Assembly (NCBI GenBank): GCA_965217115.1
Contig: OZ244239.1
Span: 384,001-448,000 of the forward strand
Direction: 5' to 3'
DNA length: 64,000 nucleotides
From: Bdellovibrionales bacterium
Lineage (GTDB): Bacteria > Bdellovibrionota > Bdellovibrionia > Bdellovibrionales > CAYMLA01
The translations under genes and the position numbers were made by a program. Position 1 is the first letter of the stretch. Each line of letters starts with the position of its first letter. The notes beneath the pieces are model-generated. The model was not told the DNA's origin, did no database searches, and saw nothing but the letters and a program-made list of their open reading frames with translations. Below, piece after piece: positions 2,264 through 47,541 of the stretch.

Positions 2264-3699
2264 TCTGCACCACCAAAGATTTCTATATTCTTAAATAAAC
2301 AAGTTGGCGTGGCATGACCCACACGTATAACCTGATTCGGTTCCCCCTTCCCACAATAGGGTGAACCGTAGACTTTAAAAGTTTCACGATCTCCAACCAT
2401 TGAGAGGTTATTCCAAAATGGATTACTCACACCTCGATAATTAGGATTCTTAACAACCTTTGTTATTTCCCCGTTTTCAATCAATCGTCCATACTCGCAA
2501 CCAAATTGAAATTTATTACGGTAGTCATCGATAGACCAAGATTTATTCCTCATCATATAAACACCTCTTTGGATGGATGAAATCATTTCATCAAAAGAAG
2601 ATTCCCCTGGTTCAATATTGATATTCGCCATTCTATCTATAGGGGGACGATTCCAGAACTCTGTACGAGAACTAGCGACACCCGCAATCTGAGAACGGGC
2701 TTGACTCTCTAACCCCCCTATACCTCGTAAGAGTTTTCCTTCTTTAATAAGATATTCTCTCTTTGCGCGATCACCAGTATCATCAAATAAATAACTCGCC
2801 ATCTCGCCCTCAACAGTTGGGTCAAAGGTGACGTTGAGCAAGGGCGAACCATACTGTAGTTTTCCAAAGTCCTCTTTTTGCACAAAAGACCACCCTGCGT
2901 AATTTCTTTCATCACCCAGTATGCGATCCAACTCCAAGGGATGCCCTATGGACTCATGAATTTGTAAATAGAGTTGATCTGGGTGAAGCAAGAGGTCACA
3001 AGTCTCTGCCGGACACTCTTGAGCCTCAAGAAGTTCCACCGCCTCCTGGCCGACCCTTTTAGCTTCATCTGTCCACAAGGAGCGATCATAAACTTCCAAA
3101 CCCACTTGAGCCGTTCCATTACCGCCTGAACGAATTTGATTATCCACCCCATCGGTTGCGGTCGCTGAAATATTTAAATCATGCATTAAAAATCTCTGTT
3201 CAAAACAAGAACCACTGCTTGATACAAATTGAACTCGACGGTCAATTTCCATGGCGGCAGCCGCTGTTTCTTTAATGGCACTTCCGACTTTGAGCTGTCC
3301 ACTCACATCCATTAAGACATCAAATATCTCAGCCTCAGATAAGGAATCCACATCCTGTTTATAGGTCGAATTAAATTCTCCCTGAGCAGAAGGTCTCTGC
3401 CTCCCATCAAATTTGAACAGAGAGTATTTAGAGGCTCTCTTAGCTAATTGGCTGGCCTTTTCTGCAATATTCTTAATTCCATCGAAATCATCACTATCGG
3501 TCGCCCCGTAAGCAATTTGACCGTTGAGCATCACTTCAACCATTAGCCCTTGGCTATAGTATTTATTAAAATCATCCATCCGTTGATTACGAGCCACTCT
3601 TCTTGTCACGGTATTGTCGATCTTTCTTATGGAGAGCCAATCAGCTTCAACTTCGATCTTATCCAAGGTTTTTTTCAGGTGAGTCAGTTCTAAAGACAT
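2260..3699 (-). CDS. tldD: TldD metalloprotease
   Basis: HESIGH zinc motif and CGKGEP motif. Confidence 0.92.
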   Translation of the reverse strand: MSLELTHLKKTLDKIEVEADWLSIRKIDNTVTRRVARNQRMDDFNKYYSQGLMVEVMLNGQIAYGATDSDDFDGIKNIAEKASQLAKRASKYSLFKFDGRQRPSAQGEFNSTYKQDVDSLSEAEIFDVLMDVSGQLKVGSAIKETAAAAMEIDRRVQFVSSSGSCFEQRFLMHDLNISATATDGVDNQIRSGGNGTAQVGLEVYDRSLWTDEAKRVGQEAVELLEAQECPAETCDLLLHPDQLYLQIHESIGHPLELDRILGDERNYAGWSFVQKEDFGKLQYGSPLLNVTFDPTVEGEMASYLFDDTGDRAKREYLIKEGKLLRGIGGLESQARSQIAGVASSRTEFWNRPPIDRMANINIEPGESSFDEMISSIQRGVYMMRNKSWSIDDYRNKFQFGCEYGRLIENGEITKVVKNPNYRGVSNPFWNNLSMVGDRETFKVYGSPYCGKGEPNQVIRVGHATPTCLFKNIEIFGGAE

Positions 3700-3735
3700 C
3701 CAAGGTTTCTAACAGAATAAAAGCACTAAATCAAC

Positions 3736-4131
3736 TTAATGGACTAAATAACGTGGTTGAAAAACAGCTAGCTGGAGCCCATTATAGGGAAGCATCTCTC
3801 TCGTATTACTTTCACACTGAACATCGAGTTTCTCCATCTCATCAGTCTCAAGATTTGTAATCTCTAATCCCCCATTCAAATCTTCTAAAAGGGACAACTT
3901 CATTTCAAAGGATTTAGAGTAATCAGACGTCACTCCCTCTATGATCAGATCAGAGCCTAACTTATAAACTTCAGAGATACGAAATCGATCTTTATTAATT
4001 TTAAGCGCGCTATTAACATATAAGAGCCCAGCAATAGAACTCTCCTCTTCATCTCCTGACCAACAATCTATGGCCAAAGAAGTATTGGATACAAGCATCA
4101 CCATCAAAATCGTTCCCATAAAATTTTTCAT
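3736..4131 (-). CDS. Hypothetical secreted protein
   Basis: ATG at 4131 after GAGGA; signal peptide ending SLA; two Cys. Confidence 0.7.
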   Translation of the reverse strand: MKNFMGTILMVMLVSNTSLAIDCWSGDEEESSIAGLLYVNSALKINKDRFRISEVYKLGSDLIIEGVTSDYSKSFEMKLSLLEDLNGGLEITNLETDEMEKLDVQCESNTREMLPYNGLQLAVFQPRYLVH

Positions 4132-4164
4132 ATCATTCCTCACTACGTTAATGTTTGTAGTAAA

Positions 4165-4180
4165 AGCATATTATGTGCCA
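4165..4180 (-). promoter_or_regulatory. Sigma54-type promoter
   Basis: Minus strand TGGCACATAATATGCT with exact GG-N10-GC spacing, upstream of 3736..4131. Confidence 0.65.
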
Positions 4181-4328
4181 ATTTCATATTAGACTGTCTT
4201 AGTTTGTATTGCCCCTGGGGCAGAAAACCTCTGCAAGACGGTTCCAGACTGTGTCCACGGGTAGTTCCAAAAGAGAACCAGAAGGAGAAAACCTAAAAAA
4301 AAACTCTTTCTTATATCCCTAGCCGAAC

Positions 4329-5603
4329 CTATTTCTCACTTGGGCTTTGATCATGACCCCTTATTTCTTCCATACCTGAACTCAGGTTCTTAAGGCGCTC
4401 GTGGAGCTTCTTCTTGAAGCTGTCATTTTCTTCTCCCGATTGGTGGGATTTCATAAAGTCATACTGTTCCTGATCAAACTGAAACAAACTCTGACCATCC
4501 TGGGATTTTATCAAACCCTTCTGCCGATGGGCCTTTATCTCCAATTTCAAATGGGCCATCTCCTTTTGAAGCTCTTCATTATGATCAGACAACTGTTTCT
4601 GAGAGACTGAGAAACTCTCTATCTTGGCCTGTAATTTTTTATTCTGAACAGAGATCCCTTCGAATTTTTCCTGCAATTCGAGAAAACCCTTCTTTTCCAG
4701 ATTTTGCTGATGGGAGAGTTCTTTTAAATTCTGACACTCATTGGTCATCTTTTGCAGACGACCTAAAACCAAATCTCTCTGCTCAACCAACTCTGATTTG
4801 ACATCGGCCCACTGTTTCTGACGCTCTCTAAGAACAAGGGTTCCTGCCTTTTTAGACTCTAAAGCAGCATTGAAATTATTACGACTCTCTACTGATTCCC
4901 TCTCTGTCTGTGCAAGACTCGAAGAGAGGAGACTGTTTTGCTCCTCAAGTTGCGACTTTGTCTCATTCCACTGTCTCTGTTTCTCTTCTAAAATAGCCAA
5001 GCCCACTTTTTTAGATTCTAATGCCGCCTTGAAGTTATCTTTACTCTCTAATAACTGGTTTTGTACCTCCGATAGACGACTCGATAATTTAGCCTTTTCC
5101 TCAACCAGATTTGTGCGCTCTCCATGGAACTTCAAATTTCTCTGGCTGTCATTTTCCCTCTCTTTTCTGATGCTTTTCATGTACTGAAAAATTCTCTGGC
5201 GATGCTTCCTAAGTCTTTCAAGCTCACCCTCAAGAGTCTTTAACTCTCTGGCATGGCGAGTCTCTTGACTATTTAAATCCTCTCGCAATGTCTCGCACTC
5301 CTTAGTGCGCTCCTCAAGTTTTTTCTCTTCCAGACGTAGAAGACTTAACGAATCCCTAAGACTATTATTCTCAGTCTCAATAGAGCTATAACGATTTTCA
5401 GCATGGTTCTTCTTCTCAGTCAGATTTCCCATCTGCATCTTAAGATCACAAACCTCTGTCTCCAGCTGTCCCAAACGCTTAATACTGCGATGGTAGGCCT
5501 GGGCCATATCCTTGGATCGCTGGATAAATTCACCCAAAAACGGAGGAGGTGTCTCCATGTCCAAATCTGTATTTTCTTCTTCTAAATTTACCTTGTTGTC
5601 CAT
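4329..5603 (-). CDS. Long coiled-coil protein
   Basis: E/K/L/Q-rich heptads, internal repeat (ESKDNFKAALESKK / ESRNNFNAALESKK); ATG 5603 with GGAG. Confidence 0.75.
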   Translation of the reverse strand: MDNKVNLEEENTDLDMETPPPFLGEFIQRSKDMAQAYHRSIKRLGQLETEVCDLKMQMGNLTEKKNHAENRYSSIETENNSLRDSLSLLRLEEKKLEERTKECETLREDLNSQETRHARELKTLEGELERLRKHRQRIFQYMKSIRKERENDSQRNLKFHGERTNLVEEKAKLSSRLSEVQNQLLESKDNFKAALESKKVGLAILEEKQRQWNETKSQLEEQNSLLSSSLAQTERESVESRNNFNAALESKKAGTLVLRERQKQWADVKSELVEQRDLVLGRLQKMTNECQNLKELSHQQNLEKKGFLELQEKFEGISVQNKKLQAKIESFSVSQKQLSDHNEELQKEMAHLKLEIKAHRQKGLIKSQDGQSLFQFDQEQYDFMKSHQSGEENDSFKKKLHERLKNLSSGMEEIRGHDQSPSEK

Positions 5604-34277: not shown

Positions 34278-36538
34278 CTCTCTTCTCTCATTAGTTTTTT
34301 TGCTTTTAAGACAATAGACTCACAGCTTGGCAAACCCTTTGTGGCCGCAACCCCTAAAGGGATTAAACAATCATAACCCACATCCACCTCTATTTTTGGT
34401 TGTGTCGGTAATTTCCTCACAATAAAGGATGTTATCTCCTCGTGAATTCCCCCGCCCGTTTCACGACACTCATCCACAATCAAGATGTTCTTGGCTGACT
34501 GTATTTCTGATTTTAATTGCTCTTTATTATAATCTTTTAACCAGCGAAGGTTCAGTATTTTTATCGAGAAGCCCTCTTGATCTCTTAAAATTTTGGCTGC
34601 CTTATGGGAGAGATAATTCCCGTTGCCATAGGTGATGATTGTTAGGTCGTCTTCCTCTCTCTGACTCTCTCTCTGACTATAATCTTTACAAACTTCTATC
34701 TCTCCTAAAGGAATTTCATTTTCTAAATCTGGGTACTCGAAACTCCAAAGTTTATCATCCTCGTCGTGAAGATCGCGAATCATGTAGAGGGCAATGGGTT
34801 CTAAGAAAACACTGACTCTGCCCTTCTCATGGGCCACGCGCACACAGGTCCTCAACATCTCAGCCGCCTCTCTTCCATTGCTGGGACAAGCTAATATCAA
34901 CCCCGGAATATCACGGAGGACTGCAAAGGAGTTGTCATTGTGAAAGTGTCCCCCAAAACCTTTTTGATAGGCCAAACCTGCAACACGAATCACCATCGGA
35001 TTTGTGTACAAACCTTGGGAGAAAAAAGGCAGGGTCGCCGCCTCTCCACGAATCTGATCTTCGGCGTTGTGGATATAAGCTAAGAACTGAATTTCAGGGA
35101 TGGGAACAAAACCGTTATGGGCCATTCCCATGGATACACCTAGAATAGATTGTTCATCTAATAGAGAATTCAAAACTCTCTTACCACCAAAGCGCTCCTG
35201 CAAGCCTTCGGTCACATGGTACACGCCGCCTTTTTTACCAACGTCCTCACCCAAGATCAGCGTGTTCTCATAGCGAAGCATTATATCGGTTAAGGCGTAG
35301 TTTATAAGCTTGGCCATGTGCATTTTCTGACCGAGGCGTTTAAACTCTCTCTGTGTAAAAACATTTTCCCTCTTTTTTTCTATCGGCTGTGGCGGGCTTA
35401 AACGGCGATGGGTGCAAGAGGTCAAAGACTCACTCACCTCTCCAATCGTCTCCAGCTTAGGTCTTCGTGTCTCGCCTTGGGTCACTCCCCGTGCCACCGC
35501 CTGAACTTGATGGCGTATTTTTTCATAGACAAAAACCAAATCTTCTTTTGAAATTAAATTGCCTTCTAAGGCGATCCGAGCCGAATGCAATAGCGGGTCA
35601 TCAAACTCCGTCTTTTCAATTTTTTCCATGGGACGATAACTCCCCTCTATGTCTGATCCCGCATGTCCTAAGAGGCGAACCGTTTTCATGTGCAAGAAAA
35701 CAGGTTGCTTTCTTTGACGAGCGATTTGTAATGCTTTGATGCCCTTCTCTGTGCAATCATTGATGTTCAAACCATCACAGGCGATGTAATGTAAACTGGG
35801 TCTATTTTTAAAAGATTCTTGAATCCAATCTCTCGGAGTCGGAACAGAAATCCCCACTCCATTGTCCTCACAAATAAACACAATCGGCAGGGGAAGGCCT
35901 TGATAGGCTATCCAACTGGCTGTGTTGATCGCGCCTTGAGCCGTTGAGTGATTGGCCGAAGCATCGCCGAAGTTACACACAATAACACTGTCATTAGAAA
36001 GTGACCTATCCCCTATTGATAGATCATTGGCCCTAACAATGGAAAACGCGGCCCCCACGGACTTGGGCAAATGGGAGGCAATCGTGCTTGTCTGGGGAGG
36101 AGTGAAAAAACGCTCACTGCCAAAAACCTTATGCCGTCCTCCAGAGATGGGATCATCCGCCGAAGCCGTCAAGGACAGGCAGATATCATAAATCGGAGTG
36201 CTGTCAGCCAAATGCTTCTGACGCTGAATAAAAAAAGCTCCGCTGCGATAGTGGAGGAAAGCCATATCTGTGTGACGGAATATCCGACCAAAAGCTGCGT
36301 TGCCCTCATGGCCTGAGCTTCCTATGGTGTAAAAGCACTCACCCCCACTCTTGAGTTGACGGGCGACAATATCCAAGTGACGGCTTATCATTTGAGTCTC
36401 AAACAGGTCCATGAAATCATCGCCACTCAAAGCGCTCTCTTTTAGACCTGTATTGCTCTTCGCAGAGGGAAGCCTTCCCCCACGGACAAACTCCGTGAAA
36501 TTTTTATCGACAACCGCCGCTCGATTAAACACATCCAT
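34274..36538 (-). CDS. Fused alpha/beta E1 TPP-dependent 2-oxoacid dehydrogenase
   Basis: GDA...N TPP motif, RLLGHAGSD, GEDV.KKGGV, EIQF. Confidence 0.88.
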   Translation of the reverse strand: MDVFNRAAVVDKNFTEFVRGGRLPSAKSNTGLKESALSGDDFMDLFETQMISRHLDIVARQLKSGGECFYTIGSSGHEGNAAFGRIFRHTDMAFLHYRSGAFFIQRQKHLADSTPIYDICLSLTASADDPISGGRHKVFGSERFFTPPQTSTIASHLPKSVGAAFSIVRANDLSIGDRSLSNDSVIVCNFGDASANHSTAQGAINTASWIAYQGLPLPIVFICEDNGVGISVPTPRDWIQESFKNRPSLHYIACDGLNINDCTEKGIKALQIARQRKQPVFLHMKTVRLLGHAGSDIEGSYRPMEKIEKTEFDDPLLHSARIALEGNLISKEDLVFVYEKIRHQVQAVARGVTQGETRRPKLETIGEVSESLTSCTHRRLSPPQPIEKKRENVFTQREFKRLGQKMHMAKLINYALTDIMLRYENTLILGEDVGKKGGVYHVTEGLQERFGGKRVLNSLLDEQSILGVSMGMAHNGFVPIPEIQFLAYIHNAEDQIRGEAATLPFFSQGLYTNPMVIRVAGLAYQKGFGGHFHNDNSFAVLRDIPGLILACPSNGREAAEMLRTCVRVAHEKGRVSVFLEPIALYMIRDLHDEDDKLWSFEYPDLENEIPLGEIEVCKDYSQRESQREEDDLTIITYGNGNYLSHKAAKILRDQEGFSIKILNLRWLKDYNKEQLKSEIQSAKNILIVDECRETGGGIHEEITSFIVRKLPTQPKIEVDVGYDCLIPLGVAATKGLPSCESIVLKAKKLMREER

Positions 36539-36622
36539 GGCGAAAATTATCCTCCATCACTGTAGCCCAGACAACCAAAAATATAATGACCATTGAGTGT
36601 GTTTTTGTGGTACTGTCTCCCC

Positions 36623-37204
36623 ATGAAAATCAATCTCAATGAAATATCTGAAGAAGGCGTCCATTTCTGTCTCACTAGAGAGAGTGGTGAGCTTGGAACG
36701 TCCCTCACTGATTTAATTTCTACAAAGCCCTATCGATTTAAGGCCCATCTGAGAAGTATCGGCTGTGGGAGCTATCAACTCATCGGAACCATGGAGACCT
36801 CTCTAGAGACTGTTTGCTCCAGATGTGGGCAAGAGACCACCCACTCTCTAAATACAAAATTTAATGACCTCCTTCTCAATAAAAATCTTGATAGCCCCTC
36901 TGACCAGTCTTCTCCCACTGGAGAGACACAGGGAAAGTCCACTGGCCAGCCCCTAGAGATAGATAGCTCTGCTCTAGATGTCTCCTATTATGAAGAAAAT
37001 CACATCTTCTGTCTGGGAGCGTTTGCCCATGAAGTCATCGCGTTATCAGAACCCTATAAAATCTACTGCGACGACTGCTTGGAGCCTGGTGCAGATTTGA
37101 GTCAGCCTGTCTACACGGACCCCGCTGGAAAAGCCGATCCTGATTTTGACAAAAGAAATTCCCCTTTCTCCGCCCTAAAAGATCTCAATCTGGACGGGAA
37201 ATAG
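36623..37204 (+). CDS. yceD: YceD/DUF177 protein
   Basis: CSRC, C..C, SPFSALK; upstream of rpmF. Confidence 0.85.
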   Translation: MKINLNEISEEGVHFCLTRESGELGTSLTDLISTKPYRFKAHLRSIGCGSYQLIGTMETSLETVCSRCGQETTHSLNTKFNDLLLNKNLDSPSDQSSPTGETQGKSTGQPLEIDSSALDVSYYEENHIFCLGAFAHEVIALSEPYKIYCDDCLEPGADLSQPVYTDPAGKADPDFDKRNSPFSALKDLNLDGK

Positions 37205-37270
37205 GAGATAAAGGTTGATTTATTCTTATTTTAAGATAACTTCTCTGAGTTAAATTAAAACGAGGTAACA

Positions 37271-37453
37271 ATGCCACAGCCAAAAAGTAGAATAACACGT
37301 TCAAGAAGGGGTATGAGACGCTCCCATGATGGAATCTCTGCTGGAGCTTCTGTTAATTGCCCCAACTGTGGCGCTGTCGCCAGACCCCACAGAGTTTGTG
37401 GCAGTTGTGGACACTACAAGGGTCGAGAAATCATCACCCAAAAAGATTCATAG
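37271..37453 (+). CDS. rpmF: 50S ribosomal protein L32
   Basis: MPQPK...RRSH, CPNC, HRVC..CGHY. Confidence 0.97.
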   Translation: MPQPKSRITRSRRGMRRSHDGISAGASVNCPNCGAVARPHRVCGSCGHYKGREIITQKDS

Positions 37454-37466
37454 ACCACTTCTCTCC

Positions 37467-38387
37467 ATGGAAAAATTCCAAGATCCCGACTGGACAGCCA
37501 AAAATAGCCCACGCGCTTCAGTCCAACCCCGTTCTCTGCAAACCCTCTGGTTTAATACAGGCACGCTGTGTAATCTCCAATGCGAGAACTGCTACATAGA
37601 ATCCAGCCCCAAGAATGATCGCTTCACCTATATAACCACAAGTGAGGTCGAGACATATCTCCAAGAGGCCGAAACTGAAAACATGGCCCCCCAAGAAATC
37701 GCCTTCACGGGCGGAGAACCTTTTATGAACCCGGAGTTTATCCAGACTCTCCACATCTGCCTCGAACGTGGTTATCAAGTTCTCGTTTTAACAAATGCCA
37801 TGAAGCCCATGGAAAAAAAGAAGTTGGAGTTATTGGAAATCCTCTCCCGATTTCCCACACAGCTCACGATACGAGTCTCCATGGACCATTACACCCAAGA
37901 ACTCCACGCCAAAGAGAGGGGGCCTAAGGCATGGCTGCCAGCCCTAAAAGGTCTCAAGTGGCTCTCTACAAATAAATTTCCCATCAGTGTTGCAGGTCGA
38001 ACTCTTTGGAATGAATCAGAGACGCAAATGCGTCAAGGGTATCGCGATCTTTTCACCCGAGAGGGGATCAACATTGATTCCTCCAATCCTGAGGCTCTTA
38101 TCCTCTTTCCTGAAATGGACGAAAATGTCGATGTCCCTGAAATCACCACAGAGTGCTGGGAACTTTTGAAATTAAACCCTGATGATATGATGTGTGCCTC
38201 TTCTAGAATGATCGTAAAGAGAAGAGACGCTCCCTCGCCATCGGTTGTCGCCTGCACGCTTCTTCCCTACGACGAACAATTTGATTTTGGACACAGTCTT
38301 AAGAAATCATGGAAAACTGTAAAACTTAACCATCCCCATTGCGCAAAATTCTGCGTTCTCGGCGGAGGCTCTTGTAGCCAAAACTAA
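37467..38387 (+). CDS. Radical SAM protein (ArsS-related candidate)
   Basis: CNLQCENC, TGGEPF, Cys-rich C-terminus; directly upstream of arsM. Confidence 0.8.
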   Translation: MEKFQDPDWTAKNSPRASVQPRSLQTLWFNTGTLCNLQCENCYIESSPKNDRFTYITTSEVETYLQEAETENMAPQEIAFTGGEPFMNPEFIQTLHICLERGYQVLVLTNAMKPMEKKKLELLEILSRFPTQLTIRVSMDHYTQELHAKERGPKAWLPALKGLKWLSTNKFPISVAGRTLWNESETQMRQGYRDLFTREGINIDSSNPEALILFPEMDENVDVPEITTECWELLKLNPDDMMCASSRMIVKRRDAPSPSVVACTLLPYDEQFDFGHSLKKSWKTVKLNHPHCAKFCVLGGGSCSQN

Positions 38388-38401
38388 ACGAGGTCATACC
38401 T

Positions 38402-39442
38402 ATGCAAAACGAAATCATTGAAAATGTAAAAAACTACTACGGACAAACTCTCGACTCATCAGACGATCTCAAGACGAGTGCCTGTTGCGTGGAAGAAGAA
38501 ATCCCCTCCTACTTAAAGCCTATTCTAAAAGATATTCATGGCGAAGTGATGACCAAATTTTACGGATGTGGCTCTCCTATCCCCCTCGAACTTGAAGGCA
38601 GAACAGTCTTAGATCTTGGATCTGGATCAGGGCGTGACAGTTTTGTGATGTCAAAACTTGTCGGACCCAACGGGCGTGTTATCGGTGTTGATATGACCGA
38701 TGAACAACTGCAAGTGGCGGAAAAACATGTGACCTATCACACTGAAAAATTTGGCTACACGAAACCAAATGTCGAATTTCGTAAAGCCTATATCGAAGAT
38801 CTAAGAACCGCCAATATCGCCGATAACTCCATAGATGTCATAACATCTAATTGCGTGTTAAACCTCTCGACCAACAAAGAAAAAGTTTTTTCTGAAATTT
38901 TCCGTGTTCTTAAACCTGGTGGAGAACTTTATTTCTCAGATGTTTTCTCTGACAGACGTATTCCAGAAGAGTTAACCAAAGACCCTGTGCTTCACGGTGA
39001 ATGTCTCAGTGGCGCACTCTACAAGGAAGATTTCCGACGTCTCCTCGGCAAAATCGGATGTGCCGATGTGCGTGTAGATAAAGAACGTATTCTAGAAGTC
39101 ACAGATCCTGATATTCACCGTAAGATAGGCATGATTACTTTCTATTCAATGACGGTTCGTGCCTTTAAATTGGAACTCGAAGATCAGTGTGAAGATTACG
39201 GTCAAGTCGCCTACTATCAAGGAAGCATTGCAGGGAATTCCCACGAGTTTGCTCTCGACGATCACCATGTTTTCAAAACCAATCAACCCACACTTGTGTG
39301 TTCCAACACGGCTCGCATGCTCACTCAAACCCGCTACCAAAAACATTTCAAAGTTGTCGGAGATGAGTCCACACACTTTGGTCTCTTTGCCTGTAATACA
39401 GATTCACAGAGCCCCGATGAAACCACGACGGGTTGCTGCTGA
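38402..39442 (+). CDS. arsM: Arsenite S-adenosylmethionine methyltransferase
   Basis: YYG, LKTSACC, YGCG, LDLGSGSG, SNCV, GEC, terminal CC. Confidence 0.88.
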   Translation: MQNEIIENVKNYYGQTLDSSDDLKTSACCVEEEIPSYLKPILKDIHGEVMTKFYGCGSPIPLELEGRTVLDLGSGSGRDSFVMSKLVGPNGRVIGVDMTDEQLQVAEKHVTYHTEKFGYTKPNVEFRKAYIEDLRTANIADNSIDVITSNCVLNLSTNKEKVFSEIFRVLKPGGELYFSDVFSDRRIPEELTKDPVLHGECLSGALYKEDFRRLLGKIGCADVRVDKERILEVTDPDIHRKIGMITFYSMTVRAFKLELEDQCEDYGQVAYYQGSIAGNSHEFALDDHHVFKTNQPTLVCSNTARMLTQTRYQKHFKVVGDESTHFGLFACNTDSQSPDETTTGCC

Positions 39443-40299
39443 TGAAGCCCATGTTTTTTTTCAGAGGGAGCTTCAGTTTTGCGCTCACCCTCTTTACAGC
39501 TATCGGTGTCTCTGCAACAAAGAAACTTGTTATTACAGGTTCTAGCACTGTGGCTCCCCTTGTGTCTGAGATTGCTAAATCCTTTGAGAAAAAACATCCT
39601 CAAACTCGCGTTGAAGTGCAGACAGGTGGTTCCACCCGTGGCCTTATAGAAGCCCGCCAAGGTGTTAACGACATTGGTATGATCTCTAGAAATTTAAAAA
39701 ACAATGAAAAGAATCTGGAGCAATACACTCTGGCAAAAGATGGCATTGCCATTATTGTCAACGCTCAGAATCCCATTGAGAGTCTCTCTAAGGCGCAAAT
39801 TAAAGGGATCTTCCAAAAGAGCACCAACTCTTGGAAAGATGTCGGTGGCCTTCCGTCGCCAATAACTGTTATCCATAAAGCCGAGGGGAGATCGACACTG
39901 GAACTCTTCTTAAATTTTTATCAACTCAAAAACAATCAGATAAAACCTGATATTATTATTGGCGATAACGAACAGGGAATTAAATCCATCGCTAACAATC
40001 CCAACGCCATTGGCTATGTCTCCATTGGAACCGCTGAATATCACATCAAACAGAAAGTCCCCATAAAAATGCTTCCCATGAACGGCGTTAGAGCGTCCAC
40101 GGAATCTCTGCGCCAAGGAATATATCCACTTTCACGAAATCTCAATTTAATCATTCAACGAAGCCCATCGAAAAGATCAGAGAAAAGATCAGAGAACATT
40201 TCAGAGAACTTAAAAGATCACTTTATCCAATTTGCCACCTCAAAGGATGTCCATGCTCTCATCCAGCAACAAGGCTTCATCCCCTACAAAAAAAATTGA
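39442..40299 (+). CDS. pstS: PstS-family oxyanion-binding protein
   Basis: GSSTV, GGSTRG, DIGMISR, DGIAIIVN; TGATG coupling to arsM. Confidence 0.85.
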   Translation: MKPMFFFRGSFSFALTLFTAIGVSATKKLVITGSSTVAPLVSEIAKSFEKKHPQTRVEVQTGGSTRGLIEARQGVNDIGMISRNLKNNEKNLEQYTLAKDGIAIIVNAQNPIESLSKAQIKGIFQKSTNSWKDVGGLPSPITVIHKAEGRSTLELFLNFYQLKNNQIKPDIIIGDNEQGIKSIANNPNAIGYVSIGTAEYHIKQKVPIKMLPMNGVRASTESLRQGIYPLSRNLNLIIQRSPSKRSEKRSENISENLKDHFIQFATSKDVHALIQQQGFIPYKKN

Positions 40300-41131
40300 A
40301 ACATCCTTGTGGGGTTTTCTTACTCTAGGCACCATTGTCTCTGGTCTCTTGTCTCTTATGATTTTCACTTTTCTCTTCAAAGAGTCTATTCCTTTTATAA
40401 AATTCTTAAGCTCTTATGAGGGGATTTTATCACGCTCATGGTTTCCTCTGGAAGGAGAATTCAATTTTCTGCCCATCATCGTCGGCTCACTCCTGGCGAC
40501 AGTGGGGAGTTTTTTACTCACAGTTCCCCTGGGAGTTCTTCTTGCGCTCTTTCTTTGTTATTACTCTCCAAAAACTCTCACTAAAGTCCTCGAACCGTTC
40601 ATTGAAGTTTTTTCTGGACTGCCTTCAGTGGTCATTGGACTCTGGGGACTTGTTGTTCTGGTCCCCTACATTCTTCAGTGGACACCGCCTGGCGCCAGCC
40701 TTCTTGCCGCCATTGTTATTCTCAGTATCATGACCCTACCCACTGTAACACTCATCATTAAGAATCGCCTAGAGGCCATTCCTAGGGAACGCCTCATCAC
40801 AGCCCAAGCACTTGGGCTTCCTAAGACGACCACTCTTCTAAAAATATTTCTGCCAGAAGTTCGTTCAGGCATTATCAAGGCCTCCGTTCTTCAAGTGGGC
40901 CGGGCCATGGGAGAAACCATGGCCGTGCTTATGGTCTGTGGTAATATTCCGCAAATACCAAAGAGTCTGTTTGCCCCCATAAGAACTCTCACAACGAACA
41001 TCGCCCTAGAGATGTCCTATGCAACCGACATTCATCGTTCCAGTCTTTTCTTTAGTGGATTTATCTTGGCGATCATCGCAACTCTCTTAGCCCTTCTCGC
41101 CCATCGCTACCAAAAAGACGGGGTCCTATGA
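40232..41131 (+). CDS. pstC: Phosphate ABC permease PstC
   Basis: GLPSVVIG, GRAMGETMAV; true start probably further downstream. Confidence 0.88.
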   Translation: MPPQRMSMLSSSNKASSPTKKIETSLWGFLTLGTIVSGLLSLMIFTFLFKESIPFIKFLSSYEGILSRSWFPLEGEFNFLPIIVGSLLATVGSFLLTVPLGVLLALFLCYYSPKTLTKVLEPFIEVFSGLPSVVIGLWGLVVLVPYILQWTPPGASLLAAIVILSIMTLPTVTLIIKNRLEAIPRERLITAQALGLPKTTTLLKIFLPEVRSGIIKASVLQVGRAMGETMAVLMVCGNIPQIPKSLFAPIRTLTTNIALEMSYATDIHRSSLFFSGFILAIIATLLALLAHRYQKDGVL

Positions 41132-41988
41132 GTTTGATGTTATGGAAAAAAAATCTTCGCCGAACATTCAGCGATGGGCTGCTGCCAGCACTCACTGTCC
41201 TTGTTTTTCTTGCCGTTTTTTCAATCTATGGTCATATCCTCTGGGATATTTTCGCAATTGGCCTTAAGGGAATCTCGTGGGATTTTTTAAGTCAAGAAAC
41301 TCTCAATTCAGGAAAAGCGGGGGGAATCTTTCCCATCATTATCTCTACTCTATGGATTTTGTTAATCTGTATGCTTGCTTCCGTCCCCATTGGCTTAGGG
41401 ACTTCGATCATTCTTGCAAATATTTTCTCTTCTAAAAAACATCATTTTCTCACATCAACAGTCAGAGTCAGTCTTGATATCTTATCTGGATTGCCTTCCA
41501 TTGTTTTTGGACTTTTTGGCAACATCTTCTTTTGTAAAATTCTAGGCATGGGGTTCTCTATCATGTCTGGTGGGTTGACCCTTGCCTGTATGGTTCTGCC
41601 GATTTTTATTAAAATCTCAGAAGAGAGCCTGCGAAAGGTCCCCTCAGAATATCGCCTTGCAGGTTTAGCCTGTGGGCTTAGTCGTGTCTCCCTCTTGCGT
41701 CACATTGTTCTTCCAAACGCTTTATCTGGCATCACTGTCGGCTTCATCCTAAGTGTGGGAAGAGCGCTTGCCGAAACTGCCGCGCTGATCTTCACCAGTG
41801 GTTATGTCGATCGCATACCTGAGAGCGTTTGGGATTCTGGGCGAAGCGCTTCAGTTCACATTTACGATCTGTCCATGAATATTCCTGGAGGTAACCAAAA
41901 TGCCTATTCCACGGCACTTGTTCTTGTCTTTATTCTTATTTTCTTAAATAGTCTCGTTAAACTCATCACTAGAAGGTTCGCTCTATGA
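41128..41988 (+). CDS. pstA: Phosphate ABC permease PstA
   Basis: GLPSIVFGLFG, GRALAETAAL. Confidence 0.88.
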   Translation: MSLMLWKKNLRRTFSDGLLPALTVLVFLAVFSIYGHILWDIFAIGLKGISWDFLSQETLNSGKAGGIFPIIISTLWILLICMLASVPIGLGTSIILANIFSSKKHHFLTSTVRVSLDILSGLPSIVFGLFGNIFFCKILGMGFSIMSGGLTLACMVLPIFIKISEESLRKVPSEYRLAGLACGLSRVSLLRHIVLPNALSGITVGFILSVGRALAETAALIFTSGYVDRIPESVWDSGRSASVHIYDLSMNIPGGNQNAYSTALVLVFILIFLNSLVKLITRRFAL

Positions 41989-42779
41989 CAGTCGTTGAAA
42001 AAAAACCTCTCATGAAAATCCAGAACCTCTCCCTAAATTATAAAAACAGCTCTGCTTTTTCTAATATTAATCTAAATATTCTTCCCCAAGAAGTTCTTGC
42101 CCTCATCGGACCTTCTGGCTCTGGTAAATCTAGTTTTCTAAATTGTTTAAATCAACTCTTCCTCTCTGTCCCCTGTTGCACAGTTGAGGGAAGTATCGAG
42201 TTTGAAGGGCGAGTTATATTAGGGGGAGAGACCACTTCGGCTAAACTGAATCTACAGCATCTCAGGAGAAACATTGGTATGGTCTTTCAAAGACCCCATC
42301 CCTTTCCCAATTCTATTTACAAGAACATGTCCATCCCACTCAAGGAAGTTGGTATTAAGAGTAAAGATTCTATCGATGAAACAATCCATAGAACTTTCTC
42401 AGATGTTGGCCTGTGGGATGAACTAAAAGATCGTCTCCAATCTTCGGCCCTCGAACTCTCAGGAGGTCAGCAACAGAGACTCTGTATTGCCCGAGCCATT
42501 GCTCTTAAACCTAAGCTATTGCTGATGGATGAACCAACAAGTTCACTCGACCCCATCGCCGCGCAAACGATCGAGTCACTCATCACGGAACTCAAGAAAA
42601 AATATGCAGTCGTCATGGTCACACACAATCTTGCCCAAGCTAGACGTATCTCAGATAAATTGGCCCTCATCTACCCTATCAACGGAATAGGTCATTTGAT
42701 TGAATACGGTGAAACAGCCCATCTCTTTAAATCTCCACAGGAAGATCTCACTAAAGAGTATTTTTCAAGGGAACTTTAA
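41985..42779 (+). CDS. pstB: Phosphate ABC ATPase PstB
   Basis: GPSGSGKS, LSGGQQQRLCIARA, MDEPTSSLDP, VTHN. Confidence 0.92.
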   Translation: MTVVEKKPLMKIQNLSLNYKNSSAFSNINLNILPQEVLALIGPSGSGKSSFLNCLNQLFLSVPCCTVEGSIEFEGRVILGGETTSAKLNLQHLRRNIGMVFQRPHPFPNSIYKNMSIPLKEVGIKSKDSIDETIHRTFSDVGLWDELKDRLQSSALELSGGQQQRLCIARAIALKPKLLLMDEPTSSLDPIAAQTIESLITELKKKYAVVMVTHNLAQARRISDKLALIYPINGIGHLIEYGETAHLFKSPQEDLTKEYFSREL

Positions 42780-42783
42780 ACAT

Positions 42784-43491
42784 ATGAAAACTGTCAGTGT
42801 TATTTTCAGCACCCACAACGATGCTAAGAATGGGTTTCTCAAGAAAAGTCTCACCTCCCTATGTGATGAGTCCTCTTGTGAAATCATTGTCGTCAATAAA
42901 AGTGACGAGATCCCCGAACTCTTAAACACACTTCCTGTGAAACTGATCTCCTCCAAAGACCCATCACGGGCAGTGAGACAAAATCTTGGTATTAAAGCCG
43001 CTCAAGGTGATATTATTCTGCTCCACCATCCACGCAGTGTTCTAGAGAGAGGAGCGATTCAGGAACTGACCGAAGCCATGGAAAATCAGATGATCACATG
43101 GGGCTGCTTCACCCATGGGTTTAACATAAAACATCCCCTTCTGCAGTTCACCTCATGGTATTCTAATAAAGTTCGCTGCGATCAAAAGAGCATTGCTTAT
43201 TTAGACCATTGTGTCTTCTTCCGACGCAGCCTACTTGAGAATGACCCCACCCCTGTCCCCGAGGTGGATATCTTTGAAGACACAGAGCTGAGTTTAAAAC
43301 TTAAGAAACTCGGCAAACCGGTACGACTCTCTAAACAGTCTACAACCTCTGCCATTCGTTTTCAAAAGAACGGTGTTTATAGGCAATCTCTTCTCAATCA
43401 AGTGCTTAAGGTGGGTTATGGGTTGGGGGTTTCTGATGGGTGGATGAATCGTCTCTACGAGAAAGGCCTCTCTCTTAATTCTAAATATTAG
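42784..43491 (+). CDS. GT2 glycosyltransferase resembling the TIGR04283 family
   Basis: RAVRQNLG, WGCF, FED, TSAIRF..NG, YGLGVS pattern, matched by eye. Confidence 0.65.
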   Translation: MKTVSVIFSTHNDAKNGFLKKSLTSLCDESSCEIIVVNKSDEIPELLNTLPVKLISSKDPSRAVRQNLGIKAAQGDIILLHHPRSVLERGAIQELTEAMENQMITWGCFTHGFNIKHPLLQFTSWYSNKVRCDQKSIAYLDHCVFFRRSLLENDPTPVPEVDIFEDTELSLKLKKLGKPVRLSKQSTTSAIRFQKNGVYRQSLLNQVLKVGYGLGVSDGWMNRLYEKGLSLNSKY

Positions 43492-43990
43492 GAGCCGTTT
43501 TTAAAATGCCTCTTTATTCTTTAGCTCAGACATTCGGTTGGCAGCGGCGCTCGCTTAGAATATCGGTCGGCTGAAGCGACCGGTATTCTAGGCGAGCATC
43601 GCACCAATCCGAACTCGCTAAAGAACAAAGAGGCATTTTAAAAACTCTCTTTGAACATCTGCGACTGACTGGGCACAACGGGGAAGGGGGATAACGGAGA
43701 GCTTAGAATATCGGTCGGCTGAAGCGCCTGGTATTCTAGGCGAGCATCGCACCAACCGAACTCGCTAAAGAACAAAGAGGCATTTTAAAAACTCTCTTTG
43801 AACATCTGCGACTGACTGGGCACAACGGGGAAGGGGGATAACGGAGAGCTTAGAATATCGGTCGGCTGAAGCGGCTGGTATTCTAGGCGAGCATCGCACC
43901 AACCGAACTCGCTAAAGAACAAAGAGGCATTTTAAAAACTCTCTTTGAACATCTGCGATGGGCTGGGAACAACGGAGGGGGTAGGATGTC
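43492..43990 (+). repeat. Hairpin element stem type C (full copy 43497..43645) plus two tandem right-half copies (period 147-148 bp)
   Basis: 29-bp inverted repeat gtttttaaaatgcctctt...; units restart at 43553, 43701 and 43848. Confidence 0.92.
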
Positions 43991-44012
43991 GGTGCGATCC
44001 ATCGTTAGGACT

Positions 44013-44048
44013 AAAAAAAAATGCCCTCGAGTGAATATCGAAGGCATC
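44013..44048 (-). terminator. Intrinsic terminator of cassette gene A
   Basis: atgccctcga...tcgaaggcat hairpin with a T-run on the minus strand; duplicated at 45325. Confidence 0.75.
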
Positions 44049-44144
44049 TTAATTTTTAACTTGGGCCTTTTATTAACCTGTCCCATTTTTGGGGTACAGA
44101 TCATTAAATTATAGCCTTTTTTTTAAATAAGAAAGTTAATATGC

Positions 44145-44678
44145 TTAATAAACTTTTTTAAAGTAATAGCAATGTCCATAAATATTAGAATTTATCTCTG
44201 GATAACGAGAAACCCGACCCACAAAAAAATCGCTATATTTTTTTAATGAGAAGATTGGAATTCCATCTGTAGATGCTAAAGAGCCCTCCCGTTCCTCGGT
44301 GGTAAAGGTCTGATTATCAGGGCTCCTCATAATTTGTACTATAGCATCCTTAAAATTTGACAAATCATTATCATAATAGTTCGCTGGTACTTTTTTCGCG
44401 TGAAAAAACATCATTTGATGTGCTGTCTTTGGGGGGAAATCGCCACCATTAGCTGGGTCTATATTTATGCGAGATGCTAATAGGCCAGCTATTGGCTTGC
44501 TTGGCGCTTTTGCTGCGTAACATCTTCCAGACCACCAACCAAAAGTTTCTTCTTCTGTAGGTAGGGTTCCTTGGTCATACATCTCTCCGAGTTCTTCAAA
44601 ATTAGTGGGAAACTCTGATGCTCCATGGACATTGCTAAATGCTAGGCATGCTAAGATAACAATAGATAGAAACTTCAT
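44145..44678 (-). CDS. Secreted hypothetical protein, paralogue A
   Basis: Signal peptide, GWWSGRCY and CYYFKKVY; AAGGAG RBS. Confidence 0.85.
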   Translation of the reverse strand: MKFLSIVILACLAFSNVHGASEFPTNFEELGEMYDQGTLPTEEETFGWWSGRCYAAKAPSKPIAGLLASRINIDPANGGDFPPKTAHQMMFFHAKKVPANYYDNDLSNFKDAIVQIMRSPDNQTFTTEEREGSLASTDGIPIFSLKKYSDFFVGRVSRYPEINSNIYGHCYYFKKVY

Positions 44679-44900
44679 TGCAACTCCTTATTTATATTGC
44701 CTATTTGGGCAATGGTTTTATTACGAGCTTTACCGCCCATAAAGTTATTGCGCTTTATTTAAAACACACAGTCTATTTAACAGTTTTTCTATGAATGTCT
44801 ATAATTATAACAATAAATTGACTCGTTCCTAAAAAACCTGCGGTGCGGGAAACTAGGTAAAAACAAGTGTTTAAACAAGGCATTTGATTCTAAATGTTCG

Positions 44901-45245
44901 AAGCCGTTTTTAAAATGCCTCTTTGTTCTTTAGCTCAGACATTCGGTTGGCAGCGGCGCTCGCCTAGAATATCGGTCGCTGGAGCGACCGGTATTCTGAG
45001 CGAGCATCGCACCAATCCGAACTCGCTAAAGAACAAAGAGGCATTTTAAAAACTCTCTTTGAACATCTGCGATGGGCTGGGAACAACGGAGAGCTTAGAA
45101 TATCGGTCGCTGGGGCGATCGGTATTCTAGGCGAGCATTGCACCAACCGAACTCGCTAAAGAACAGAGAGGTATTTTAAAAACTCTCTTTGAACATCTGC
45201 GATGGGCTGGGAACAACGGAGAGCTTAGAATATCGGTCGCTGGAG
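44901..45245 (+). repeat. Hairpin element stem type C (full copy 44906..45053) plus partial tandem copies (period about 130 bp)
   Basis: Same sequence family as 43497..43645. Confidence 0.92.
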
Positions 45246-45324
45246 GGGATAAGACAATTGAAGATGTAAAAAAAATACCGGAGAAAATAAAGTATTATAA
45301 CCATAGCGATTCATCGTTAGGACT

Positions 45325-45359
45325 AAAAAAAATGCCCTCGAGTGAATATCGAAGGCATC
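45325..45359 (-). terminator. Intrinsic terminator of cassette gene B
   Basis: Same hairpin as 44013..44048. Confidence 0.75.
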
Positions 45360-45453
45360 TTAATTTTTAACTTGGGCCTTTTATTAACCTGTCCCATTTT
45401 TGGGGTACAGATCATTAAATTATAGCTTTTTTTAGATAGGAAAGTTAATACAC

Positions 45454-46002
45454 TTAATAAACTTTTTTAAAGAAATAGCAATTTGAATAAACATCACCAG
45501 CGCGCCATCTGTGCTTACCATTGGATGTAGAACCATCTTGATTAACAATAGCTTGGCCTATAAAATAATTTTCATATTTTCTTAGTGCAAAATCTAAATT
45601 AAGTGGTGTATATGCATATAAAGAATTGTCTCTTTTTTTAACAATAATTCTTCTGTTTTCTTCAGTGTTTATAAGTTCTTCTACCTCAACCTTAAATTCT
45701 AATAAATTATTGTCAAAGTAGTCAGCTGCTTGTTTTGATCCATGACGAAGAAAGACCATTTGATGCGTCTTTGAAGGTTCATCTGTAATCATCCTAGATA
45801 CTAATAGGTTAGGTAATGGATTACTTGGCATTAATACATCGTAACATCTTCCAGACCACCAACCAAAAGTTTCTTCTTTTGTAGGCAGGGTTCCTTGGTC
45901 AAACATCTCTCCCAGTTCTTCAAAATCAGTGGAAAGCTCTGATGCTCCATGGACACTGCTAAATGCTAGGCATGATAAGATAACAATAGATAGAAACTTC
46001 AT
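45454..46002 (-). CDS. Secreted hypothetical protein, paralogue B
   Basis: Near-identical N-terminus to A, CYFFKKVY end. Confidence 0.85.
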   Translation of the reverse strand: MKFLSIVILSCLAFSSVHGASELSTDFEELGEMFDQGTLPTKEETFGWWSGRCYDVLMPSNPLPNLLVSRMITDEPSKTHQMVFLRHGSKQAADYFDNNLLEFKVEVEELINTEENRRIIVKKRDNSLYAYTPLNLDFALRKYENYFIGQAIVNQDGSTSNGKHRWRAGDVYSNCYFFKKVY

Positions 46003-46224
46003 TGCAACTCCTTATTTATATTGCCTATTTGGGCAATGGTTTTATTACGAGCTTTACCGCCCATAAAGTTATTGCGCTTTATTTAAAACACACAGTCTAT
46101 TTAACAGTTTTTCTATGAATGTCTATAATTATAACAATAAATTGACTCGTTCCTAAAAAACCTGCGGTGCGGAAAACTAGGTAAAAACAAATATTTAACC
46201 AAGGCCTTTGATTCTAAATGTTAG

Positions 46225-46470
46225 ACGCCGTTTTTAAAATGACTCTTTATTCTTTAGCTCAGACATTCGGTTGGCAGCGGCGCTCGCTTAGAATATCGGT
46301 CGCTAAAGCGACCGGTATTCTAAGTGAGCATCGCACCAATCCGAACTCGCTAAAGAACAAAGAGGCATTTTAAAAACTCTCTTTGAACATCTGCGACTGA
46401 CTGGGCACAACGGAGAAGGGGGACAACGGAGGGGGTAGAATATCGGTCGCTGGGGGGACTGGTATTCTAA
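46225..46470 (+). repeat. Hairpin element stem type C (full copy 46230..46377) plus a degenerate partial copy
   Basis: Same family; followed by a poly-G/GAAA purine tract to about 46530. Confidence 0.9.
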
Positions 46471-46542
46471 GGGGGGGGGGGGGAGAGGGAGGGAAAGAAA
46501 GAGAAAGAAAGAAAGAAAGAAAGAAAAAGAGATATATAAAAT

Positions 46543-47541
46543 TTAGGGGGTGAGGAAGCCGGTTTTTTTGTAGACGTTTTTTAGGGTTTTGTGGGCGATT
46601 TCTTTTGCTCGTAGGGCGTTTGTTTTTAGCATTGACTCTAGATAAGTTTGATCCTGTATAAGTTTGTCGTACTCTTCACGCACGGGGCGTAACACATCAC
46701 AAACTAGGTCCGCCGTGGCCACCTTGAAATGTCCATAGAGTTTTCCTGAAAACTCTTTTTCTATCTCAGGTAAACTCATTCCCGATAGACAGGAGTAAAT
46801 CGTCATTAAATTAGCAATGCCCGCCTTGCCCTCAAGGTCATAGGTGACCTCCTCTCCGGAGTCTGTAACGGCGGATTTAATTTTCTTTTGAATTTTGTTT
46901 TCTGGATCAATCACTGATACGTAGGCCCCAGGCAAACAGTCTGATTTAGACATCTTAGACATCGGGTCCTTCAGAGACATCACCCTTGCCCCCAATTTAT
47001 TAATCAAAGGTTCTGGGATAACAAAGGCCTGGCCATGGCGTTTATTAAACTGCTCCGCCAAATCGCGGGTCAACTCCAAGTGTTGCTTTTGATCTTCTCC
47101 CACGGGAACCAAATTTGTCTGATAAAGTAATATATCTGCAGCCATCAATACAGGATAAGTAAAGAGCCCTGTATTGATGTTTTTAGGGTCACTCTCTGAT
47201 TTATCCTTAAACTGTGTCATTCTCCTTAGAGAACCCATCGGAGTTAAGCAACTCAAAACCCAAGCAAGCTCCGTGTGTTCACTCACATGGGACTGCATGA
47301 AAATAATATTTTTCTCTGGGTCTAAACCGCAGGCCAAATACTGAGCAATAAAGGACAAACTCCTCTGGCGCAACTCCTTAGGGTCCTGCCTCACAGTGAT
47401 TGAATGGAGATCCGCCGCCATATAGAGACAGCTATACTCATCCTGCATCTTCGCCCAATTAGAAACAGCGCCGATGTAATTGCCTATGGTCAGAACACCT
47501 GTGGTCGTACTCGCACTTAGAACTGTTTTTTTATCTGCCAT
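46543..47541 (-). CDS. trpS: Tryptophanyl-tRNA synthetase
   Basis: TIGN, YPVLMAADIL, VPVGEDQ, KMSKS. Confidence 0.96.
   Translation of the reverse strand: MADKKTVLSASTTTGVLTIGNYIGAVSNWAKMQDEYSCLYMAADLHSITVRQDPKELRQRSLSFIAQYLACGLDPEKNIIFMQSHVSEHTELAWVLSCLTPMGSLRRMTQFKDKSESDPKNINTGLFTYPVLMAADILLYQTNLVPVGEDQKQHLELTRDLAEQFNKRHGQAFVIPEPLINKLGARVMSLKDPMSKMSKSDCLPGAYVSVIDPENKIQKKIKSAVTDSGEEVTYDLEGKAGIANLMTIYSCLSGMSLPEIEKEFSGKLYGHFKVATADLVCDVLRPVREEYDKLIQDQTYLESMLKTNALRAKEIAHKTLKNVYKKTGFLTP

Follow-up and report, generated by a model that had tools for sequence, protein, structure and literature searches.

The methyltransferase ArsM and the radical S-adenosylmethionine (SAM) enzyme ArsS form, with their associated families, an already known arsenic cassette, found in the cyanobacterial arsenosugar pathway, and true ArsS has been characterised experimentally (cited in the part of PMC12159101 available to us). 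In the arsinothricin pathway of Burkholderia gladioli, ArsM works with the radical SAM enzyme ArsL, whose C-terminal cysteines (conserved RCCLKC) have been proposed to hold arsenite (bioRxiv 10.1101/2024.02.01.577332, in the available excerpt). Extra pst operons in arsenic islands are also known. The purpose of microbial arsenosugars is an old open question; most often they are explained as a way of detoxifying the arsenate that enters via phosphate carriers. Here, an operon is described from a stretch of 64,000 nucleotides (the window, G000:C1:384001-448000) of the single-contig, 2.17-Mb genome (99.4% complete) of a Bdellovibrionales bacterium; window genes were called by listing of open reading frames (ORFs) and Pfam/NCBIfam family scans. 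Directly 3' of rpmF, seven co-oriented genes encode a radical SAM enzyme (rSAM), ArsM, the Pst-type ATP-binding cassette (ABC) importer PstSCAB, and a TIGR04283-like glycosyltransferase.

The operon is very probably a variant of the arsenic cassette with a dedicated importer. The combined explanation considered best is a compact module for an arsenosugar-type organoarsenical, served by an oxyanion importer of its own that most likely carries arsenate, and it is judged slightly better than even. Two of its parts were weighed separately: from its sequence and context, the rSAM would, somewhat more likely than not, form a C–As bond as ArsS does, and arsenate as the cargo of the importer is a tentative assignment, somewhat short of an even chance.

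The importer and its gene neighbourhoods

Relatives of the operon PstS were collected by scanning metagenome contigs with an alignment of the PstS subfamily and two PstS motifs, and the best 80 of 570 relatives were analysed; a metagenome scan with the single operon PstS protein returned no relative. Since the selection patterns were the two motifs, loci entered the sample by their binding protein, whatever its gene context. Locus contents were scored by tblastn and clustering, with ArsM, ArsS, the ArsS-substitute radical SAM gene and accessory genes counted as cassette genes. At least one cassette or ArsR-family gene adjoined pst in 61 of the 80 loci, a count that describes this PstS type alone, and, where 2.5 kb or more of upstream sequence was available, in 44 of 52; after dereplication of PstS, 51/64 groups at 90% identity and 18/21 at 70% were positive. 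ArsM was present in 32 loci, ArsS in 22 and a radical SAM gene of the window superfamily in nine (three of the window type and six of a third clade), and about 20 loci held at least one of VTT, a flavin adenine dinucleotide (FAD) disulfide oxidoreductase (FADox) and DUF547. An ArsR-family gene was found in 22 loci, in 15 of them directly upstream of pstS. Core cassette genes lay on the pst strand in 75 of 75 cases, and phoU was present in 0/80 loci. The linkage proposed in the preliminary description of this DNA is thus conserved on the transporter side. Among 60 relatives from the window's order, the PstS type was found in five. In two of these an ArsC homologue of the LMWPc type lies directly upstream (in one case together with ArsM), in one a PNP-family phosphorylase lies upstream, and two show no arsenic context.

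The operon PstS is 25% identical to the canonical PstS of its own genome and 49–56% identical to subfamily members from cyanobacteria, planctomycetes and many metagenomes; the PstS of a true-ArsS operon in genome G062 is 53% identical to it. Among solved structures, the operon PstS is matched best by 4gd5/4q8r and 1twy (E 1e-32 to 6e-29), which are binding proteins of the S-type. The invariant S82 aligns with the Ser of A-S-R in 4gd5, the position of the discriminating Asp, which assigns the protein to the S-type, and the N-terminal S-S-T and G-S-T loops are kept. The S-G-T anion loop with an Arg/Asp pair, a further S-type feature, is missing: the loop reads K-A-E-G-R-S-T in the subfamily and R-E-D-G-S-G-T in 4gd5, and among 21 subfamily members four of its residues (K, G, S, T) never vary and R almost never does. 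By these alignments, the operon PstS is placed in a distinct S-type subfamily. Near its C-terminus (residues ~243-256), the window protein also carries a 12-residue insertion rich in Ser, Lys, Arg and Glu, which is absent from all 20 aligned subfamily members. S-type phosphate-binding proteins, in which Ser replaces the Asp of the low-barrier hydrogen bond, are described for other proteins as much poorer at excluding arsenate (PMC13614923, in the part available, which also gives the binding residues of SphX and PstS1). A subfamily of this kind, which accompanies ArsM and ArsS-type genes in many lineages and has no phoU beside it, was not found in the searched literature, which omits most subscription journals.

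The operon is not the only pst locus of the genome, a possibility the preliminary description had left for checking. A separate, canonical pstS-pstC-pstA-pstB-phoU locus lies at G000:C1 ~2,009,300-2,013,500, with all five products above their NCBIfam cut-offs. Within the operon, PstC (214.6 bits, cut-off 196.45) and PstA (231.5, cut-off 193.45) exceed theirs, and PstB is the second-best PstB match in the genome, the canonical copy scoring 394 bits.

Two other explanations of the importer were weighed against these data. Under the first, the main rival though an improbable one, the operon would serve detoxification: a phosphate-selective Pst would keep phosphate uptake going under arsenate, as has been put forward for the additional pst1 operons of arsenite-oxidase arsenic islands, and ArsM, rSAM and glycosyltransferase would detoxify arsenic that leaked in. 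Extra pst operons in arsenic islands are documented, with a second pst elsewhere, ArsR-dependent expression of pstS1 and a 'more specific uptake system' (PMC3834237, in the part available); in the present data, all four Pst components resemble working phosphate-transporter parts, and this explanation would agree with the ArsR-family gene directly upstream of this PstS type in 15/80 loci and with ArsC upstream in two relatives from the order. An S-type PstS without the Asp that gives high phosphate/arsenate discrimination (PMC13614923, as far as available) fits it poorly, as does the complete lack of phoU in the survey. The genome holds no ArsC, Acr3 or ArsB, so there is no ordinary resistance system for a protective importer to assist, and in three of six rSAM cassettes described below a Pit/PHO4-like carrier occupies the equivalent place. 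Pit is a low-selectivity carrier.

The second, still less probable, is phosphate scavenging with collateral clean-up: a second, scavenging Pst would leak arsenate, evolution would have tied the conversion genes to it, and arsenic uptake would be a side effect. That pst shares its strand with ArsM, ArsS or rSAM genes at many loci would be expected here too, as would a binding protein of a poorly discriminating type (PMC13614923, in its available part) and an operon that follows a ribosomal-protein gene and has no visible arsenic regulator. The genome, however, already holds a canonical Pho-type system, and the upstream ArsR-family gene in 15/80 loci, together with phoU or a PhoU-like partner in none, points to a metal or metalloid signal, and not phosphate, as the controlling input.

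Three side observations were made around this Pst subfamily. One recurrent neighbour of it (L046, L076, L078, L087, L096) is a ~440-aa protein that matches no Pfam or NCBIfam family. In L078, L087 and L096 an AglJ/dolichyl-phosphate-hexose-transferase-like GT2 stands beside this protein, and the two together hint at a branch of lipid-linked glycosylation. L087 also encodes, at 3493-4803, a pyridine nucleotide-disulfide oxidoreductase of the 'N-terminal to SelD' family TIGR03169 (312.6 bits, cut-off 310), a selenium-associated family inside an arsenic-type cluster.

The radical SAM enzyme, ArsM and the glycosyltransferase

The best NCBIfam matches of the window rSAM covered the N-terminal core only (Rv1681 family, 91.3 bits against a cut-off of 380; ArsS TIGR04167, 63.6 against 300). 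The ArsS match spanned model positions 2-145 only; the true ArsS in G062 scored 458 bits. DUF3641 (PF12345) was not matched at E<=0.01 in the window rSAM, and the sister clade likewise lacks it; in two true ArsS proteins it scored 183.9 bits. Identity with ArsS was rejected on these grounds, and the earlier proposal of a subfamily distinct from canonical ArsS holds. Identity with ArsL was rejected as well, as the RCCLKC tail of ArsL is missing. The motif WFNTGTLCN..C..CYIESSP, given in the earlier proposal, was confirmed and varies little among 20 family members.

Invariant cysteines in 20 members are C35, C39 and C42 (the SAM cluster, CxxxCxxC) and C230, C243, C263, C292, C296 and C303 within the C-terminal 80 residues. 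The window enzyme ends in H-x-C-A-K-F-C-V-L-G-G-G-S-C, so that its C292-x3-C296-x6-C303 stands against C-x2-C-x7-C in ArsS, and ArsS, the window family and the third clade have the ending H-x-C-x2-3-C-x6-7-S-C in common; the combination of CxxxCxxC with a cysteine-rich extreme C-terminus, a feature of ArsS, is thus found in the window rSAM. Nearest folds to its AlphaFold2 model (predicted local distance difference test score, pLDDT, 85) were twitch/SPASM enzymes (BlsE, SuiB, SkfB, anSME), and an auxiliary cluster is therefore likely according to the model. A sequence search of solved structures returned only YydG/EpeE (E 1e-6). The family is very large, with at least 8000 significant candidates; the best 120 are mostly ~58-64% identical and none has a more specific name than 'radical SAM protein', and the protein atlas gave unnamed radical SAM clusters only. 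Members of the third clade are ~30% identical to the window enzyme (hhalign 100%, full length). As a side observation, third-clade enzymes (L048, L060, L062, L073, L086, L120) end in H-H-R-C-Y-S-C-F-x-x-G-A-S-C, reach no NCBIfam cut-off, and are always encoded between ArsM and a VTT::FADox fusion, upstream of the same Pst subfamily.

Gene neighbourhoods centred on rSAM were taken from 19 genome loci and from the 60 relatives of the window's order. In 6 of the 19 loci, TIGR04282 (140.5 bits, cut-off 134), TIGR04283-like and ArsM genes are immediately convergent with rSAM, and a divergent pair of VTT/DedA (+DUF547) and FAD disulfide-oxidoreductase genes adjoins the cassette. The MTAP gene (277.7 bits, cut-off 274.85) is present in five of the six; the cassettes also include ArsC-like genes in two cases, an aquaporin in one and Pit/PHO4-like genes in three, where they hold the place of Pst. 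In three of four searched genomes with an rSAM cassette canonical ArsS was not found, and G062 holds both enzymes. Among the order relatives, rSAM was found in three of 60: in G002 it follows arsM and is divergent from a glycosyltransferase of the window type, in G054 it is likewise divergent from such a glycosyltransferase, and in G001 it adjoins DUF547/VTT. The linkage put forward in the preliminary description is therefore also conserved on the rSAM side. Two further loci connect these cassettes with the importer. L073 has TIGR04282, TIGR04283 (201 bits), ArsM, rSAM, VTT::FADox, DUF547 and PstSCAB in one run; G062 has a true-ArsS operon on a single strand, ArsS-VTT::FADox-DUF547-TIGR04283-TIGR04282-ArsM-PstS-PstC-PstA-PstB. 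Judged by such gene orders, ArsS, the window family and the third clade replace one another in otherwise equal operons.

The window ArsM has a SAM-binding Rossmann domain (Methyltransf_31, 121 bits). In ten cassette-linked ArsMs, C28, C29, C56, C151, C201, C300, C345 and C346 are invariant; C28/C29, C56, C151 and C201 are those that we take to be the As(III)-binding or catalytic cysteines. Cassette-linked ArsMs, whether partnered by ArsS or by the substitute rSAM, have a C-terminal domain ending in an invariant Cys-Cys, which may be a hand-over site for trivalent arsenic.

Profile searches for TIGR04283 and TIGR04282 had been suggested earlier. The glycosyltransferase aligned with the whole TIGR04283 model (1-221 of 221) at 119.4 bits, below the cut-off of 182; it also matched Glycos_transf_2 (31.6 bits), and its homologues adjoining rSAM in G002 and G054 are 38-41% identical to it. 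TIGR04283 copies in clusters elsewhere score up to 201 bits. No gene linked to the operon matched TIGR04282; an unlinked TIGR04282-like gene adjoins mutS2 (TIGR04282 64.4 bits, cut-off 134; DUF2064 35, cut-off 25.8).

These sequences and neighbourhoods bear on two explanations of the chemistry. It is very unlikely that the rSAM makes another C–As (or other) bond, for example by 3-amino-3-carboxypropyl transfer as in ArsL, giving an arsinothricin-like or novel product, with the MTAP of related clusters removing methylthioadenosine. In favour are a C-terminal domain unrelated to DUF3641, the best NCBIfam E-value of the window ArsM, which is to the arsinothricin-type ArsM model (194 bits), the MTAP gene in five of six cassettes, the release of methylthioadenosine by ArsL (bioRxiv 10.1101/2024.02.01.577332, in the available excerpt), and the failure to find ArsM in four of five searched genomes with the window-type rSAM. 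Yet the RCCLKC tail that defines ArsL is missing, the arsinothricin ArsM score is far under its cut-off of 500, the rSAM swaps with true ArsS in clusters that retain TIGR04282 and TIGR04283, and a GT2 enzyme with a nucleotidyltransferase-like protein is better suited to sugar chemistry.

Far less credible is a module for another element (selenium, antimony or tellurium) or for an unrelated sugar modification, in which the arsenic names would apply by association only. The 'arsenosugar' names of TIGR04282 and TIGR04283 do rest wholly on context, ArsR/SmtB regulators sense many metals, and one related locus holds the selenium-associated TIGR03169 oxidoreductase. On the other side, the window ArsM retains every conserved cysteine, this Pst subfamily shares its operon type in 22/80 loci with true ArsS, an experimentally characterised enzyme, and ArsC homologues lie upstream in two relatives.

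The operon in its genome and a proposed pathway

Positions of the operon genes and of the surrounding features are given in Table 1. The seven genes are tightly coupled as first described, 13 bp past rpmF and with arsM and pstS overlapping in TGATG, which was confirmed from the ORFs and by reading of the junctions; the overlaps of pstC/pstA and pstA/pstB are 4-nt ATGA, and 14 bp separate rSAM from arsM and 4 bp pstB from the glycosyltransferase gene. The start of pstC is ambiguous, either ATG at 40247 or 40253, overlapping pstS, or TTG at 40307, which lies 7 nt past the stop of pstS and from which the PstC model starts to match. From rpmF to the end of the glycosyltransferase gene, a consensus scan of the + strand gave no terminator-like site; the promoter and terminator scan was at chance level (promoter-like matches 13 versus 10.7 +/- 3.8 in shuffles), and Rfam gave no match at E<=0.1 in 36000-47000. 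The E. coli-type Pho-box pattern matched six times in the window (5.0 expected), nowhere 5' of the operon, and the canonical pst locus likewise has no upstream match. By gene arrangement, the seven genes are taken as one operon. As the gap from rpmF to rSAM is only 13 bp and holds no terminator-like site, the operon is probably co-transcribed with yceD-rpmF.

Table 1. Window positions of the operon genes and neighbouring features
Feature	Position	Strand	Basis and remarks
yceD (DUF177)	36593..37204	+	Pfam YceD 39.7 bits; 66 bp 5' of rpmF; likely first gene of the transcription unit
rpmF (ribosomal protein L32)	37271..37453	+	TIGR01031 76.8 bits, above cut-off
Radical SAM enzyme, 306 aa, CNLQCENC	37467..38387	+	Pfam Radical_SAM 54.8 bits; ArsS substitute by context
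arsM, arsenite S-adenosylmethionine methyltransferase type	38402..39442	+	PRK11873 193.7 bits; Methyltransf_31 121 bits
pstS, S-type subfamily, K-A-E-G-R-S-T anion loop, signal peptide	39442..40299	+	TIGR02136 163.5 bits
pstC permease	40232..41131 (ORF); true start probably 40247, 40253 or 40307	+	TIGR02138 214.6 bits
pstA permease	41128..41988	+	TIGR00974 231.5 bits
pstB ATPase	41985..42779	+	TIGR00972 305.7 bits
GT2 glycosyltransferase, TIGR04283-like	42784..43491 (longest ORF from 42700)	+	TIGR04283 119.4 bits
Array, 2.9 copies of 147-bp dispersed repeat	43553..43975		TRF; bounds the operon at its 3' end
Small gene, first paralogue	44145..44678	-	Signal-peptide-like N-terminus
Dispersed repeat	44965..45245		
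Small gene, second paralogue	45454..46002	-	Signal-peptide-like N-terminus
Dispersed repeat	~46218..46373		

The dispersed repeat (~147 bp, core ~92 nt) has an internal inverted repeat and 67 matches in the genome; both paralogous small genes are flanked by copies of it.

As first noted, arsR, arsC, acr3 and phoU are not alongside the operon (window ORFs and family scans). Acr3 (TIGR00832), ArsB (PF02040) and ArsC (TIGR02691, PF03960) gave no match at E<=1e-5 in the whole genome, so that a classical reduce-and-export route is lacking, and whole-genome tblastn with two ArsR queries found no homologue. Unlinked to the operon, at G000:C1:265573-267732 (L035 5573-7732), the genome encodes a 719-aa protein in which a VTT/DedA membrane domain is fused to an FAD disulfide oxidoreductase resembling MerA; it is 58% identical over 684 aa to the L073 copy between rSAM and DUF547/PstS and is, speculatively, a candidate for the missing arsenate reductase. 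VTT::FADox fusions were observed as recurrent members of arsenosugar-type clusters. An MTAP-like gene is also present in the genome, unlinked to the operon. These two genes and the DUF2064-like gene may or may not belong to the pathway.

The following pathway is proposed from gene context, motifs and fold. The Pst-type ABC importer would bring in a tetrahedral oxyanion, most likely arsenate, possibly with phosphate. Arsenate would be reduced to As(III) by a candidate enzyme, speculatively the unlinked VTT(DedA)::FAD disulfide-oxidoreductase fusion, and As(III) would be methylated by ArsM, to judge from its family and conserved cysteines. The rSAM, with its twitch/SPASM-like C-terminal domain and terminal three-Cys motif, would then form a further C–As bond, most likely by 5'-deoxyadenosyl transfer as in ArsS. 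As a conjecture, the resulting adenosyl arsenical could be converted into an arsenoriboside by a phosphorylase, a nucleotidyltransferase-like protein and the TIGR04283-like GT2 glycosyltransferase, and the products of the unlinked DUF2064/TIGR04282-like and MTAP-like genes may help. The product would be an arsenosugar-type compound, not methylarsenicals only, and the purpose of the operon would be biosynthetic.

Several findings weigh against this pathway. The alignment of the window rSAM family with ArsS (hhalign, 98.4% probability) covers 178 columns of the radical SAM core and nothing beyond, and with no DUF3641 its chemistry may therefore differ from that of ArsS. Scores below NCBIfam cut-offs were obtained for ArsM (PRK11873 193.7 against 263; AsSugarArsM 128 against 400; arsinothricin ArsM 194 against 500), PstS (163.5 against 206.6) and PstB (305.7 against 343.2), as for the glycosyltransferase above. 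In the rSAM-centred samples ArsM adjoins rSAM in only 6 of 19 loci, the other 13 having unrelated neighbours, and pst never does (0/19 loci; 0/3 order relatives); only 3 of the 80 PstS-centred loci hold a window-type rSAM. In five searched genomes with an unlinked rSAM, an ArsM homologue (E<=1e-30) was found in one and a TIGR04283-like gene in all five. The canonical PstS of the genome is also S-type, so this type alone is no mark of an arsenate carrier. No arsenate reductase was found by the genome searches above, and imported arsenate would thus need some further reductase; with no arsR at the operon, arsenic-responsive control is not indicated in this genome. The TIGR04282-like and MTAP-like genes may be unrelated housekeeping genes.

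A broader reading appears unlikely: that the K-A-E-G-R-S-T PstS subfamily would be a dedicated arsenate importer, coupled in many phyla to ArsM and ArsS-type enzymes and, in many relatives, preceded by an ArsR-family regulator gene, and that arsenic would be acquired deliberately for a retained organoarsenical (an arsenosugar or an arsenolipid-type envelope or storage compound) and not merely expelled. On this reading, the module would be hard-wired behind a ribosomal-protein gene in a genome without ArsC, Acr3 and ArsB, and would therefore be expressed during growth.

A conserved importer in ArsM/ArsS-type operons makes the purpose of arsenosugars directly testable through the ligand of PstS and the cargo of the transporter. 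If the cargo is arsenate, arsenic uptake would be purposeful and the pathway anabolic; if PstS is phosphate-selective, a new solution to phosphate/arsenate discrimination would have arisen on a class of binding protein thought poor at discriminating. In either case, the substitute rSAM family and this transporter both escape surveys of arsenic cycling whose counts are limited to arsM, arsS and ars resistance genes.

Comparison with described systems

Like the cyanobacterial ArsM-ArsS arsenosugar pathway, the operon has ArsM beside a radical SAM enzyme that carries CxxxCxxC and ends in a three-Cys motif, and a TIGR04283-like GT2; true ArsS operons, too, contain VTT/DedA, FAD disulfide oxidoreductase and DUF547 as accessory genes as well as a Pst of this subfamily. 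Unlike that pathway, its rSAM is not ArsS, its ArsM, glycosyltransferase and TIGR04282-like protein fall under the family cut-offs, and its genome carries the TIGR04282-like, MTAP-like and VTT::FADox genes at scattered places. Of the ArsS neighbourhood (ArsM, TIGR04282, TIGR04283), the window holds ArsM and a TIGR04283-like glycosyltransferase, and 6 of 19 related loci hold the full set.

With the ArsL-ArsM arsinothricin pathway, the operon shares the pairing of a radical SAM enzyme with ArsM. It differs in an rSAM without RCCLKC and an ArsM far from the arsinothricin model (194 against 500), and instead of an ArsQ-type exporter, none of which was seen, it has a glycosyltransferase and an importer.

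The pst1 operons of arsenite-oxidase (aio) arsenic islands are alike in being an arsenic-linked second Pst with a canonical copy elsewhere, and in the link to ArsR, present there in the islands and here in relatives (PMC3834237, in the part available). The Pst described here is partnered by ArsM and ArsS-type biosynthetic genes instead of aio or ars resistance genes and has neither phoU nor pho genes attached (0/80 loci); the likeness described is one of gene context. Finally, the operon PstS shares with the S-type proteins C. perfringens PBP-1 (4gd5/4q8r), V. cholerae 1twy and Synechocystis SphX the Ser at the discriminating-Asp position and the conserved N-terminal S-S-T and G-S-T loops, and it differs from them in the anion loop, where R-E-D-G-S-G-T (4gd5) is replaced by the K-A-E-G-R-S-T of its subfamily.

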